A stretch of 64,000 nt of DNA from Candidatus Cloacimonadales bacterium (GCA_963678315.1 OY782781.1:928001-992000), one strand, 5' to 3'. Positions 16,839 through 21,517 are shown, counted from the stretch's first letter. Numbers and translations: made by a program. The notes: a model not told the origin generated them from the sequence alone.

Positions 16839-19800
16839 ATGTTAAAGAAACTTCTATTAGTAATGATGCTTTGTGCATTAATGGCAACTATGTGGGCATT
16901 TGAACCACACTTTATGAAAGATCCAGATATTTCTCCGGATGGAAGTCAAGTGTGTTTTGTGTATAATGGTGATTTATGGACTGTTCCATTTGAAGGCGGT
17001 CAAGCGACAAGATTAACTGATACTTACTATAACGAATATGAACCAAAATATTCACCTGATGGTAAGAAGATAGTCTTTCTCGGAAATGGAGAAGGAGTTT
17101 CTCAGATATACTCAATTGATGTTCAAGGTGGTGTTCCAGAGAAAATCTCAACTTCTGGATATGGATTATATGACTGGTTTCCAGATGGAAAATCACTTCT
17201 TGGTGGTAAATATAATCCACGCTTAGGATTAAGTTTTTCTGAAATCCCACTAAATGAAAACAGACCTAAAGATATTACTTTAAAAGGTGATTCTTTTGCT
17301 ACTGTGTCAAATGATGGTAAAAGAATTGTTTATTGTGACAGAGGAGACCCATTTAGAGAAGCTTATAGAGGTTCTACTAATGGAGAACTTTGGGAATACA
17401 ATATTAAGAAGGACAAATATACAAAGCTTACTAATAGTGATGTAACTGAACGTTATCCTGTGTTCTCTAAACAACACGATAACCGATTATATTATGCTAA
17501 ATCAGATGGAGAAATTCTTCAGCTGTTTGTAACTGAAAACTATGATTTTACTAATGAACAAAAGTTAACTAGCTTTAAGACTTGGTCAGTTCGTGACCTT
17601 TCTATTGCTAGAGAAAATGATAGATTAGTATTTGAGAAGTTTGATGAAATCTGGGCTTATGATGGTCAAGAAGCTAAGAAAATTAACATCGATATTAACG
17701 AACTTATTGTTCCTGTAACAGTTGAAAGAGAAAATGTTAAAAATGGCTTCGAAGATATTGAGATAACTTCTAATGATAAAGTGCTTGTTTTTACTTATAT
17801 GTATGACTTATTCATGATGCCAAAAGATGGTGGTCCTGTAAAACAAATAACTTTTGACCATGTTCCTATCTCAAAGATTCAAACTTTAGAAGATGACGAT
17901 ACGATTGTAATTTTAAGAAGAGACAGAGGTTATGGCCAATTATATAAGATTAAGATTAGTGAGCCTCAAGAATTAATCAAGATTGCTTGGTCTGAAGATA
18001 GAGATATTAATGATTTCGAAAAAACTGGTGCAGGTAACTTCTTAATTCATTATACAGTTAATAACAAAGAAATTAAAGCTGCATTGACTGATAAAACATT
18101 CTCGAATTTCGATAGACTTACCTTCGCTGATAAAAGAATCTATTCTTATGTAGAAAGAATTGATTCTGACTATGTAGCAATTACAGAGATTGACTTTGTG
18201 AAAAGCATTTATTATTTAAGTTTATACAATTCTAGATCTGGTCAAATATTCCCAATCTATAACTCATATAAGGGTATCTATGGATTAGTTTGGGGTAAAG
18301 ATGATAGAACTTTATTCTTCACTGAATCTGGCAATGTTAAGAGAGTTGATTTACATGCAGTTGATAAATTAGCAAAATACCAAGATCCATGGGATAAAAT
18401 CCTTAAAGAAGAGGACAAACTTTCAGAAGAAGACTCAGAAGAAACTGAAGTTGTAGATTACCCTGAGTTAAATATCGACTTTACTGAAATAGACAAAAGA
18501 ATCTATACTGTGTTTGAGAAACCTGGTTTCTGTAGAGTACTTTCAGTTATAAATGATACTACTATGGTTATTGAAAAGAATGATTCAGGAACTGTTTTCT
18601 ATAAAACTAACTACTATGGAGAACATGAAGAAGAGATAACTAAAATAGAAGAAAAAACTTATTACACATATAATGATAAGAGTAAGAATTATTACTATAA
18701 TGATGAAAATATGATTCGCTTTGTTAACCTTGAAAGCAGTGCGACAGGTAAGATAGAGAATAGCTTCTTCTATGAATACGATAAATCTAAAATAAGAAGA
18801 CAGCTTTTTAAAGAGGTATGGGGAAGGTTTGGAACAGAGTTTTATGACCCTCAAATGCATGGTGTAGACTGGAATAAGCTTTATGATAAGTATTTACCTT
18901 ATGTAGACTACTGCAAAAGTAACAATGATATCGCTTCTATTGTTGAAGAAATGATCGGGGAAGTAAATGCTTCACATACAGGATTCTATCCAAAGTCTGA
19001 TAAGTATATTTACTCTTACATAAAAGCAACTATTGGAGCAAGCCTAGATTATTCTGAAAGATTATCAAAAGGTATTAAATTCAGAACAGTTTATGATAAT
19101 ACTTCTCTAAAGGATGTTTATAATGTTCAAGCAGGAGATTTACTTCTTGCGGTTGATGGAGTTAAAATAGATAAAGAAACTGATATCCCTATGTTGTTTG
19201 CTAATAAAGTATTTAAGAATATTAAATTAGAGATTAAACGTCAAGGTGAAGATAAACAAGAAATCTGGGTTAAAGGAATTACTGGCTATGAACTATATGA
19301 CCTTGAATATAGAGATTGGGTGAATAAGAGAAGCGAAATAGTTAAACGTAACTCTGATGATAGAATCGCTTACCTTCATATAAAAGGGATGAACCAAACT
19401 GCCTTGAAGAAATTCATGGAAGACTTCTGGAATGATAACCTCAATAAAGAAGGATTTATTATTGATGTGCGTGGTAACGGTGGTGGTAATATATCTGATG
19501 AACTTATTGATATTATTGAAAGAGATTACCGTTCTGTAACTTCTAGTAGATATTATGGCGACATGAAGATTAAGCGTGATAGAAAGACTTTTGACAAGCC
19601 TATTGTTGTGCTTATTGATGAAGATTCTTTCTCAGATGCTGAAGTATTCCCTCATTTAATGAAGCAAGAAGAACTCGCTACCCTTATTGGTATGCCAACT
19701 AGTGGTTCAGTTATCGGTACTTATAATATAGACCTTTTTGAAGGTTCTAGCATGAGAATACCATCTAGTGGTTGGTGGACTCTTGACGGTACTAACATGG

Positions 19801-19910
19801 AAGGAAATGGGGCTCAACCAGACATTAAAGTTGAGATGACTCCTGAAGATTATATCAATGATAATGATGTTCAATTAGAAACAGCTATTGATTTCTTATT
19901 GAATAGATAA
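16839..19910 (+). CDS. Tricorn-like S41 peptidase (signal peptide, PD40 beta-propellers, PDZ, S41 domain)
   Basis: PDISPDG/YSPDG repeats, FYDPQMHGVDW, ASHTG, IDVRGNGGG, SFSDAE, EGNGAQPDI. Confidence 0.92.
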   Translation: MLKKLLLVMMLCALMATMWAFEPHFMKDPDISPDGSQVCFVYNGDLWTVPFEGGQATRLTDTYYNEYEPKYSPDGKKIVFLGNGEGVSQIYSIDVQGGVPEKISTSGYGLYDWFPDGKSLLGGKYNPRLGLSFSEIPLNENRPKDITLKGDSFATVSNDGKRIVYCDRGDPFREAYRGSTNGELWEYNIKKDKYTKLTNSDVTERYPVFSKQHDNRLYYAKSDGEILQLFVTENYDFTNEQKLTSFKTWSVRDLSIARENDRLVFEKFDEIWAYDGQEAKKINIDINELIVPVTVERENVKNGFEDIEITSNDKVLVFTYMYDLFMMPKDGGPVKQITFDHVPISKIQTLEDDDTIVILRRDRGYGQLYKIKISEPQELIKIAWSEDRDINDFEKTGAGNFLIHYTVNNKEIKAALTDKTFSNFDRLTFADKRIYSYVERIDSDYVAITEIDFVKSIYYLSLYNSRSGQIFPIYNSYKGIYGLVWGKDDRTLFFTESGNVKRVDLHAVDKLAKYQDPWDKILKEEDKLSEEDSEETEVVDYPELNIDFTEIDKRIYTVFEKPGFCRVLSVINDTTMVIEKNDSGTVFYKTNYYGEHEEEITKIEEKTYYTYNDKSKNYYYNDENMIRFVNLESSATGKIENSFFYEYDKSKIRRQLFKEVWGRFGTEFYDPQMHGVDWNKLYDKYLPYVDYCKSNNDIASIVEEMIGEVNASHTGFYPKSDKYIYSYIKATIGASLDYSERLSKGIKFRTVYDNTSLKDVYNVQAGDLLLAVDGVKIDKETDIPMLFANKVFKNIKLEIKRQGEDKQEIWVKGITGYELYDLEYRDWVNKRSEIVKRNSDDRIAYLHIKGMNQTALKKFMEDFWNDNLNKEGFIIDVRGNGGGNISDELIDIIERDYRSVTSSRYYGDMKIKRDRKTFDKPIVVLIDEDSFSDAEVFPHLMKQEELATLIGMPTSGSVIGTYNIDLFEGSSMRIPSSGWWTLDGTNMEGNGAQPDIKVEMTPEDYINDNDVQLETAIDFLLNR

Positions 19911-19996
19911 AACAGATAAGTTAAGAAAAGTCTTGACAGTTAGTTTTCTTACTATACTGTTGGTTTAATAATAAAATAAACAAAAGGAGATGCGGA

Positions 19997-20026
19997 ATGA
20001 TTAATGTATTATATCTTAATAATTAA
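19997..20026 (+). CDS. Putative leader peptide MINVLYLNN of the hflX attenuator
   Basis: AGGAG at 19985-19989, ATG 19997, TAA 20024-20026, directly before alternative hairpins. Confidence 0.6.
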   Translation: MINVLYLNN

Positions 20027-20030
20027 TTCT

Positions 20031-20157
20031 GCACTGACCCTTTAAATATAAACATTTAAGAGATGGGATCAGTGTGTAGTTAACATTGCTGATCCTATCG
20101 TTGCGTCTATTTTCCCGGATTGCAGTCCTTATAGGATTAGCAATCCGGTTCTTTTTT
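20031..20157 (+). promoter_or_regulatory. Transcription attenuator in the hflX leader (mutually exclusive hairpins plus intrinsic terminator)
   Basis: Segments 20031-20040, 20062-20074 and 20086-20099; terminator CCGGATTGC...GCAATCCGG (20115-20148) + TTCTTTTTT; pairings checked by eye. Confidence 0.75.
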
Positions 20158-20188
20158 AGGGGAAAAATAAGAATAATAAGGAGTTCAA

Positions 20189-21517
20189 ATGAATTTAGTA
20201 GGAAATGAAAGCAGTGATAGTATTATTCTTGACCCAAACAAAGTAGTTTTGGTAGGTATCTGTCTTCCTGACGAAAATATTGGTGATAAGGAAAAATCAC
20301 TTGATGAACTAGAGCTTCTTGCCAAGACAGCAGGGCTCAAAAGTGTTGATAAAATGATACAAAAGAGAAGCAGAATAAATGGTGCAACTTATGTTGGAAG
20401 TGGCTTCTTAGAAGAGATTAACTATGTTGCTAAGATAAATGGAGCTAGCCAAGTTATCTTCGATAATGAGCTTTCTCCAACGCAAGGAAAGAATGTCTCT
20501 GACCTGTTAGAAGTTGATGTTATAGATAGAACAGAAGTTATATTAAATATATTCCATCATCATGCTCAAACTAATGAAGCTCGTTTGCAGGTTCAGTTAG
20601 CAGAACTGCAATATCAACTTCCAAGACTTAAGAAACTTTGGTCTCACTTCGAAGGCGAAAGAGTTGCTGCTGGGGGAGCTAAAGGTTCTGGAACTGCTTC
20701 TAGAGGTATGGGTGAAACTCAGCTTGAAGTAGATAAAAGACTCATTAGGGAAGAGATATATAAGGTGCAGAGAAAGTTAAGCAATATTCTCAAACAGAAA
20801 GAGACTCAAAGTAAGCGCAGAGCAGGTATGAAGCGTATCTGTCTTGTCGGCTACACTAATGCCGGCAAGTCAACCCTCTTTAATCAGATTACAGACGCTG
20901 GAGTTTTGGCTGAGGATAAGCTATTTGCTACTCTTGGTAATACTGTCAGAATGGTGAAGCTAAATAGAGGAAGAGAGATGGTAATATCAGATACAGTGGG
21001 ATTTATATCTCAATTACCTCACCATTTAGTTGCATCATTTAGAGCAACTTTGAAAGAGGTTACAGAAGCTGATTTATTGCTTCATGTTATCGATGTTTCA
21101 GATGAAAGGTATGATTTTTATATAGATGAAGTGAATAAGGTTCTTGAATCAATCGGAGCTTCAGATGTTAATGTTCAGCTTGTTTTCAACAAGATAGACA
21201 GGCTTGATAAACAGCAGCTATTATTCTTGGAATCACGATTCCCAGGAGCTGTTTTTATCTCAGCTAAGAAGAATATTAATATTGATCTTTTGAAAGATAA
21301 AGTTGATAGAAGTCTTCATTCTCACGCTACATACAGGTTATTTATTCCTTTTACTGAACAAAAATCTGCTTCTAAATTAGAGAAACTAGGTGAAGTTGTT
21401 AATAAGGATTACCAGAATCAAGGAACAGAGTTTGTGGCAATTCTCAATGATGAGGATGTTAGATTCTTCCAAAGGTTCTTACGATTCACAATTGATGACT
21501 TTTATCCAAATATATAG
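20189..21517 (+). CDS. hflX: Ribosome-splitting GTPase HflX
   Basis: GETQLEVDKR, VGYTNAGKSTL, DKLFATL, DTVGFI, NKID. Confidence 0.97.
   Translation: MNLVGNESSDSIILDPNKVVLVGICLPDENIGDKEKSLDELELLAKTAGLKSVDKMIQKRSRINGATYVGSGFLEEINYVAKINGASQVIFDNELSPTQGKNVSDLLEVDVIDRTEVILNIFHHHAQTNEARLQVQLAELQYQLPRLKKLWSHFEGERVAAGGAKGSGTASRGMGETQLEVDKRLIREEIYKVQRKLSNILKQKETQSKRRAGMKRICLVGYTNAGKSTLFNQITDAGVLAEDKLFATLGNTVRMVKLNRGREMVISDTVGFISQLPHHLVASFRATLKEVTEADLLLHVIDVSDERYDFYIDEVNKVLESIGASDVNVQLVFNKIDRLDKQQLLFLESRFPGAVFISAKKNINIDLLKDKVDRSLHSHATYRLFIPFTEQKSASKLEKLGEVVNKDYQNQGTEFVAILNDEDVRFFQRFLRFTIDDFYPNI

Follow-up and report, generated by a model that had tools for sequence, protein, structure and literature searches.

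What decides whether transcription reaches an hflX gene that lies behind a short uORF and an intrinsic terminator in Candidatus Cloacimonadales? This question is raised by a stretch of 64,000 nucleotides (GCA_963678315.1 OY782781.1:928001-992000, hereafter the window) from a single-contig genome of 2.99 Mb that has a G+C content of 32.8%. An earlier note on this DNA had read the leader of hflX as an attenuator that senses ribosomes, and had named as its precedent Listeria hflXr, which is induced by ribosome-targeting antibiotics through a uORF attenuator. The precedent is real, as described in PMC6310831, and the lineage of the window, Candidatus Cloacimonadales, is indeed distant from Listeria. 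Here, we analyzed the leader, its relatives, its computed folds and the protein encoded downstream.

Results

Elements of the hflX leader

The leader lies between a gene for an S41/tricorn-like protease and hflX. When the window was read from 19500 to 20500, the SD, the nine-codon uORF, the terminator and all the pairings quoted in the earlier note were found exactly at the positions it had given. The elements used below are as follows.

19933..19938, + strand: promoter-like -35 box TTGACA; CTTGACA is invariant in the eight aligned leaders (window and L006-L012)
19984-19989, + strand: SD of the uORF, AAGGAG, with a spacer of 7 nt to the ATG
19997..20026, + strand: uORF from ATG to TAA, nine codons plus stop, MINVLYLNN (window sequence read)
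19983..19998, + strand: segment 0, the 5′ arm of helix P0 (consensus alifold and window fold)
20026..20043, + strand: 3′ arm of P0, overlapping segment 1 at 20031-40 (consensus and window folds)
20031-40, + strand: segment 1, GCACTGACCC (confirmed by sequence)
20065-74, + strand: segment 2, GGGATCAGTG (confirmed by sequence)
20088-99, + strand: segment 3 in the form that pairs with segment 2, GCTGATCCTATC (confirmed by sequence)
20086-98, + strand: segment 3 in the form that pairs with the terminator 3′ arm (T3′), TTGCTGATCCTAT (confirmed by sequence)
20131-43, + strand: stretch of the terminator 3′ arm that is the partner of segment 3, ATAGGATTAGCAA (confirmed by sequence)
20031..20075, + strand: hairpin 1:2, the anti-anti-antiterminator, 20031-47 with 20054-75, -15.2 kcal/mol
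20062..20099, + strand: hairpin 2:3, the anti-antiterminator, 20062-77 with 20083-99, -20.3 kcal/mol
20085..20144, + strand: antiterminator, segment 3 (20085-98) with the terminator 3′ arm (20131-44)
20115..20157, + strand: intrinsic terminator, stem 20115-29 with 20133-48, loop UAU, U tract 20149-57
20189..21517, + strand: hflX, clade A copy, 442 aa, with an extended NTD2 (PTC) loop (TIGR03156, Pfam)

The CTTGACA box is found in the leader L045 too. It is a candidate -35 box of a promoter whose -10 box and transcription start can be placed only by guess. A consensus scan of the leader for promoters and terminators flagged neither this box, which was missed because of the spacer length, nor the terminator, which a simple scan misses because of the bulge in its stem. 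As DNA, the terminator reads CCGGATTGCAGTCCT / TAT / AGGATT-A-GCAATCCGG at 20115-20148, followed by TTCTTTTTT at 20149-57, and the corresponding RNA is CCGGAUUGCAGUCCU / UAU / AGGAUU-A-GCAAUCCGG at 20115-48, followed by UUCUUUUUU at 20149-57. Its bulged stem of 15 bp has a stability of about -22 kcal/mol and is present in 9/9 of the leaders described below. In the antiterminator fold, the linker at 20100-08 is weakly paired to the terminator 5′ arm (T5′). Segment 0 covers the SD (19984-89) and the spacer and extends two bases into the uORF AUG (19997-98); hflX has its own SD, which is also AAGGAG, with a spacer of 5 nt as against the 7 nt of the uORF. We also considered whether the terminator is the mere end of the protease gene. 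This reading was rejected, since the terminator lies ~240 nt beyond the stop of that gene, sits behind the conserved TTGACA box and travels with hflX in a sister genus.

Further complementarities were noted around these elements. Directly 5′ of the terminator, AUUUUCCC (20109-20116) is complementary to GGGGAAAAAU directly 3′ of the U tract (20158-20167), and in the sister genus CCGGGG(A) after the U tract is complementary to ACCCGG at the terminator foot. The AUUUUCCC/GGGGAAAAAU match could provide another alternative pairing in read-through transcripts. In addition, the invariant linker UUGCGUC (20101-20107) can pair with GAUGCRG between the SD and the uORF AUG (19988-19994), and this helix is part of the MFE structure with a ribosome at the uORF stop codon.

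The leader and its uORF are conserved in a sister genus

The whole leader is kept in all seven genomes of the sister genus and in one metagenome contig (L045), which with the window gives nine distinct leaders, all of them close relatives. An exact-pattern scan of genome contigs returned nine matches, of which seven were the sister-genus leaders and two (L036 and L040) were chance matches within coding DNA and were rejected as leaders. A metagenome scan with the protein returned only two close relatives, and one of these, L044, with masked bases within its leader, was dropped. When the whole genome of the window was searched with the leader by nhmmer, the leader itself was the sole match. A search of Rfam at permissive thresholds gave only unrelated families, with best E values of 0.22-9, far below the gathering score.

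The earlier note had staked its reading on the presence of the uORF and the alternative pairings in relatives, and both sets of pairings are kept in 9/9 leaders. Over the nine leaders, 97.0% of 299 cells are paired in the ON set and 97.4% of 389 in the OFF set; sliding the partners as a control lowers the figure to 25-47%. By helix, the paired cells amount to 96.7% for hairpin 1:2, 99.1% for hairpin 2:3 and 100% for the 9-bp core of the antiterminator. Conservation is concentrated in blocks, namely the TTGACA box, the SD, the uORF start, the last uORF codons with the stop, segments 1-3, the terminator and the linker UUGCGUC before it; variable parts are the uORF middle and the 1:2 loop. Double-sided changes number 0 in the ON helices and 1 in the OFF helices (in P0 of L012), and 60/500 shuffles equal this. 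Covariation in the nine leaders is thus uninformative, and the helices are conserved without covariation proof.

The uORF has 9, 12, 13 or 15 codons in the nine leaders, every indel is a multiple of 3, and the stop lies 4-5 nt upstream of CACUGA in 9/9 leaders. The SD spacing, the in-frame indels and the fixed distance from the stop to segment 1 are evidence that the uORF is probably translated. The peptide starts with MIN in 7/9 leaders, and because this conserved start overlaps a strand of P0, the conservation of MI(N) may reflect the RNA rather than the peptide. The uORF of the window, MINVLYLNN, contains no RLR or +x+ arrest motif; K/R-x-R stands three codons before the stop in 6/8 sister leaders.

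Other differences among related leaders were observed. In L007 (genome G001), the terminator and hflX are separated by an additional insert of ~220 nt, which carries long inverted repeats and resembles a small mobile or palindromic element. In L020 and L025 (family f2), a leader with the uORF MIRTERLRK, GGGUCAGUC, GGCUGGUCCUG and a CCCGGAC terminator appears to be a homologue of the leader of the window that has an RLR peptide and a shorter terminator.

A helix at the uORF completes a chain of exclusive pairings

The MFE structure of 19965-20165 (201 nt) consists of the 2:3 helix and the terminator at -58.5 kcal/mol. Its z-score is -4.6, and 0/200 shuffles were equally stable. As isolated hairpins, P0, 1:2, 2:3 and the terminator have energies of -14.2, -15.2, -20.3 and -22.1 kcal/mol, respectively. 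When the stretch from segment 3 through T3′ was folded in isolation, the antiterminator was preferred (-22.9 kcal/mol), and with segment 3 free, the antiterminator (-23.4 kcal/mol) is favored over the terminator (-21.4 kcal/mol) by 2 kcal/mol. The first statistic of chance, the number of ungapped stems of at least 9 bp, was not significant (4 observed, P=0.22). The occurrence of two ungapped stems of at least 13 bp with a common strand (2:3 and 3:T3′), a statistic chosen post hoc after the first had failed, was found in 1/3000 dinucleotide shuffles.

The earlier note had missed the helix P0, which the consensus fold computed from the nine leaders contains along with 2:3 and the terminator. Through the pairs AAGG/CCUU, AG/CU, UGCRGA/UCUGCA and UGAUUA/UAAUUA, P0 joins one strand with the SD, the spacer and the first uORF codons to another with the last uORF codons, the stop and segment 1. 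In L012, P0 is preserved despite changes on both strands (GUGAAA with UUUCAC), and has -7.4 kcal/mol there. With P0 added, the alternative pairings line up as a chain, 0:1, 1:2, 2:3, 3:T3′ and T5′:T3′. As heuristic upper bounds, of which only the window values were used, findpath gave barriers from 1:2 to 2:3 of ~11 kcal/mol with segment 0 masked and 6.6 kcal/mol with segment 0 free to pair again in P0, and a barrier of >20 kcal/mol between the formed antiterminator and the terminator. Several of the sister-leader barriers were not interpretable because their end states still contained 1:2.

Ribosome position and the fate of the terminator

The earlier note had proposed to fold the leader with segment 1 constrained and free, and this comparison gave no flip, because with the whole terminator present 2:3 plus the terminator is the MFE structure under every mask; the terminator forms in 9/9 leaders in all ribosome states. 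Since the terminator always wins at equilibrium, the ON state rests on assumed co-transcriptional kinetics and footprints and on the heuristic barriers given above. Co-transcriptional snapshots were obtained by masked folding of the nine leaders 6 nt before the terminator is complete, with an assumed ribosome footprint of ~-15 to +15 nt. With the P site on the AUG, 1:2 plus 3:T3′ was the MFE structure in 9/9 leaders. With the ribosome on the last sense codon, it was 2:3 plus the partial terminator in 9/9 leaders. Without a ribosome, the OFF fold was the MFE structure in 7/9 leaders, and L010 and L045 were ON.

The computed folds agree with the earlier note in that a leader with a uORF and a terminator lies 5′ of hflX and that 1:2, 2:3, 3:T3′ and the terminator are mutually exclusive, and a ribosome at the stop codon that covers segment 1 led to the terminator state in 9/9 leaders in the masked folding, as it had claimed. 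What has to be revised is its state without translation, since it had overlooked P0, and P0 is predicted to make the untranslated leader OFF in 7/9 cases; the leader would therefore sense arrested, not missing, ribosomes.

In the version of the earlier note, the hairpins are the same and P0 has no role, a ribosome-free leader is ON, the leader is OFF solely when ribosomes reach the stop in time, and the whole would sense translation capacity in general. Indeed, 1:2 is in the MFE structure without a ribosome when just segments 1 and 2 exist (prefix 20078), but the barrier from 1:2 to 2:3 falls to 6.6 kcal/mol as soon as segment 0 is free. The outer part of P0 is weak (-14.2 kcal/mol in total, and only -7.4 kcal/mol in L012), yet P0 is in the consensus fold of nine leaders and L012 retains it via changes in two strands. 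The snapshot without a ribosome is ON in 2/9 leaders, against 7/9 that are OFF, and start-codon mutants are described as OFF in both tested precedents, rli80 (PMC6310831) and cplR (PMC10201436). We consider it unlikely that P0 is dispensable in this way, and we prefer a leader that is held OFF by P0 and is turned ON by an arrested ribosome.

The downstream gene encodes a long-loop HflX

The ORF downstream of the leader encodes HflX, with a score of 404.6 bits to TIGR03156 against a cut-off of 216.75 (3e-121) and with the Pfam domains GTP-bdg_N, GTP-bdg_M and MMR_HSR1. A second HflX is encoded in the same genome (L002, G000:C1:2255325-2256521); it is 41% identical, has a short loop and belongs to clade B (see below), and no leader was found upstream of it. 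This copy begins right after a small gene (product start MKIKFRDVSQG).

Extended HflX loops have been tied to macrolide and lincosamide resistance, with an extension of +2 for the Listeria HflXr loop and of +8 for the mycobacterial one, as described in Koller 2022 (PMC9638945). In the alignment with solved structures, the loop of the window HflX exceeds the E. coli HflX loop by 8 residues and aligns without gaps with mycobacterial HflX, and the clade B copy L002 aligns without gaps with E. coli HflX. Among PDB entries, the window protein scores 274.9 bits with the Mycobacterium protein, 262 bits with E. coli HflX and 246 bits with Listeria HflXr. When the length of the NTD2 loop was counted in the alignment between PRL and RGxGE, it was 20-26 aa in 39/39 clade A sequences (24 in the window) and 16 aa in 39/45 clade B sequences. 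It was also 16 aa in 25/27 of the sampled Bacillota_A sequences plus one Balneolales sequence.

HflX was found in 59/61 genomes, that of the window and 60 from its order. In a quick ML tree of 112 sequences, Cloacimonadales HflX fall into two clades, clade A (39 rows, support 99), which contains the window copy, and clade B (45 rows, support 100), which contains the other copy of the window genome. The two clades group as sisters with a support of 93 in this tree, and form part of an unrooted three-way split in a tree of 64 rows. No HflX with more than 47% identity to the window protein was found in 301 Bacillota_A genomes. Four Bacillota_A HflX from genomes with two copies have a +2 loop and a terminator just upstream; in the 64-row quick ML tree, which contains no Bacilli sequences, these four join the other Bacillota_A (93), not clade A (100).

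The earlier note had asked for the phylogeny of HflX versus HflXr, and in this 64-row quick tree, built without Bacilli rows, the window gene falls outside the HflXr-like group. Neither this grouping nor the PDB scores, among which that of Listeria HflXr does not stand out, support a place for the window protein in the HflXr clade. The window HflX shares traits with HflXr, namely the domain architecture, an NTD2 loop that is longer than that of housekeeping HflX and a second, short-loop copy in the genome.

uORF leaders accompany clade A across the order

An SD and a short uORF were found upstream of 29/40 clade A genes; 10 genes have none and 1 has no upstream DNA. Examples of these 29 uORFs are MIRTERLRK, MMITIRLRNN, MKKYIRLRK, MINKLRLRW, MKILKLRF, MMINN and MFIIYN, and a K/R-x-K/R motif occurs in 16/29. 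When the genes were scanned automatically for a uORF plus terminator, 18/39 in clade A, 0/42 in clade B and 1/28 in Bacillota_A scored as positive; the clade A hit L018 seems to be spurious. The genomes of family f4 have a single HflX, of clade A, and 7/9 are leaderless. Clade A would thus not always be inducible, because 10 of its genes are leaderless, 7 of them in these single-HflX genomes.

Some clade A genes have other surroundings. In L019, L024 and L032 (family f12), clade A hflX lies directly after a gene for an ABC-transporter ATPase/permease, with no leader, and this arrangement may be an operon of an efflux pump and a long-loop HflX. In L032 (genome G040), long tandem GATGGAC-like units lie between the ABC-transporter gene and hflX. 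Genome G056 has two near-identical clade A hflX genes with near-identical RLR leaders on two contigs (L034 and L050), a pair that is either a duplication or an assembly split.

These data also bear on whether the structure is real and yet no ribosome switch. In that case, the uORF would be incidental, and the leader would serve as a structured 5′ UTR with a constitutive or leaky terminator, or as an attenuator that responds to a protein or a small ligand. Such a reading gains from the helices being without covariation proof and from the regulation being predicted from sequence. P0 alone could explain why both uORF ends are conserved, and the peptide lacks conservation in its middle, but the SD spacing is good and all uORF indels are in frame. 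Moreover, an SD and a short uORF, often with RLR, stand before clade A hflX, and not before clade B hflX, in leaders that are unrelated to each other, and the leader of the window matches no Rfam family. We regard an incidental uORF as quite unlikely, and retain the arrested ribosome as the probable signal. With the inverted polarity, 1:2 and the antiterminator would keep the leader ON by default, and ribosomes that pile up at the end or stop of the uORF would turn it OFF. This would agree with the OFF fold given by a ribosome on the last sense codon in 9/9 leaders, but it is highly improbable. Such a polarity would hardly suit the physiology of a factor for ribosome rescue or resistance, the leader is OFF in its thermodynamic ground state as it stands, and, by footprint arithmetic, a ribosome arrested at K/R-x-R in the sister genus would stop short of segment 1.

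Discussion

Proposed mechanism

The leader is a real and conserved feature, and for its function we think, on balance, that a ribosome-dependent transcription attenuator is probable, in which a five-step pairing relay would control a resistance-type, long-loop paralogue of HflX. Segment 0 is here the SD, spacer and AUG of the uORF, segment 1 lies just past the uORF stop, segments 2 and 3 are the next two, and T5′ and T3′ are the arms of the terminator. In the ground state, there would be no ribosome, or a ribosome at the stop that covers segment 1 as segments 2 and 3 are transcribed. P0 and 2:3 would then form, the terminator would form, transcription would end at ~20150-57 and hflX would be OFF. 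In the induced state, a ribosome would be arrested on the start or the early codons of the uORF, and in the sister genus the arrest may instead fall at K/R-x-R three codons before the stop. Footprint arithmetic predicts that an arrest at this motif would also leave CACUGA free. The arrested ribosome would occupy or break P0 and leave segment 1 free, so that 1:2 could form once segment 2 is made and sequester segment 2. The free segment 3 would then capture the emerging terminator 3′ arm, and RNA polymerase would read into hflX (ON). By the same scheme, any ribosome held within the body of the uORF would give the ON state.

The elements, their conservation, their energetics and the long loop are observations, and we infer the ribosome positions and the kinetics in this scheme. 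The likely natural inducers would be drugs that act at the PTC or the exit tunnel (lincosamides, pleuromutilins, streptogramins and macrolides), and the resistance function of the protein is likewise presumed. The mechanism is plausible and consistent with the folds, and draws on kinetics and on analogy with known systems.

Relation to known attenuators

In the trp and his attenuators, the position of the leader ribosome relative to segment 1 selects the hairpins, and the signal is scarce charged tRNA at runs of codons. The leader of the window shares this logic of ribosome position, but has no codon runs and one more layer of helices. Among solved structures, the best-scoring relative of the window protein is mycobacterial HflX (PDB 8vkw and 8vio), with the same NTD2 loop length; it is encoded by a single-copy gene. 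Mycobacterial HflX is under the control of WhiB7, and we know of no uORF-terminator leader for it. A role in resistance is ascribed to mycobacterial HflX in the work cited in Koller 2022 (PMC9638945).

A close parallel in gene and arrangement is rli80-hflXr of Listeria monocytogenes. As described by Duval et al. 2018 (PMC6310831), it has a uORF of 14 aa with RLR that overlaps the anti-antiterminator, its logic has three levels, and the start-codon mutant is OFF. On that description, both leaders have a short uORF, alternative hairpins and an intrinsic terminator before a second copy of HflX, both genomes have a housekeeping HflX paralogue elsewhere, and arrested ribosomes are the proposed inducer in both. 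In contrast to Listeria, the uORF of the window has nine codons, lies wholly within P0 and has no RLR, and two extra relay helices (1:2 and 2:3) stand between the uORF and the antiterminator. There is also no similarity in sequence or in Rfam, the protein falls outside the HflXr-like group, and the loop is extended by 8 residues, not 2.

The leaders of ARE-ABCF genes are also similar in several respects. In B. subtilis, the vmlR uORF is MIN, and its identity matters for induction by lincomycin, as reported by Obana et al. 2023 (PMC10201436). In the same account, a 5′ hairpin in the C. difficile cplR leader sequesters the uORF. As in these leaders, a very short uORF that starts with M-I-N is found in the window, a 5′ hairpin of the repressed state hides the uORF and its SD (anti-SD), a terminator lies downstream, and ribosomes arrested at the start are the presumed signal. 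The window differs from them in that the regulated gene encodes a GTPase, not an ABCF protein, the uORF is longer, and the freed strand would act via two intermediate helices and not directly on the terminator. The uORFC-6-1 motif of Bacillales (PMC8632094) likewise has a uORF and a structured leader before hflX; its description, with a conserved RLR and an occurrence in Bacillales, sets it apart from the leader of the window.

A literature search returned no paper that mentions both Cloacimonadota and hflX. This kind of attenuator is known, and the leader of the window would be a new form of it, with two relay helices, with no arrest motif in its uORF, and in a phylum and an HflX clade for which we found no such description.

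Implications

In the accounts cited here, HflX under uORF attenuation is reported from Bacillota, namely Listeria and Bacillales (PMC6310831, PMC8632094), and the discussion of long-loop HflX has centered on Bacillota and Actinomycetota (PMC9638945). The data presented here add an uncultured phylum with a separate long-loop clade and widespread RLR-type leader peptides, which may not descend from HflXr. We suggest, tentatively, that Cloacimonadota may have evolved their own inducible resistance of the HflXr type, independently of Firmicutes and Actinobacteria, with a long-loop clade under uORF attenuators, a five-helix 'domino' relay and, in the sister genus, dual arrest sites. If this is true, the sister-genus uORF would carry a MIN start for PTC drugs and K/R-x-R near its end for macrolides, and one leader would sense both classes of drugs that are countered by HflXr-type factors. 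As an unusually readable case, the relay would also help to ask how long a series of alternative helices can become in a co-transcriptional switch. If the clade did arise separately, inducible HflX protection against macrolides, lincosamides and pleuromutilins would be a recurrent, convergent answer to natural antibiotics, and the environmental reservoir of HflX-based protection genes would be wider.
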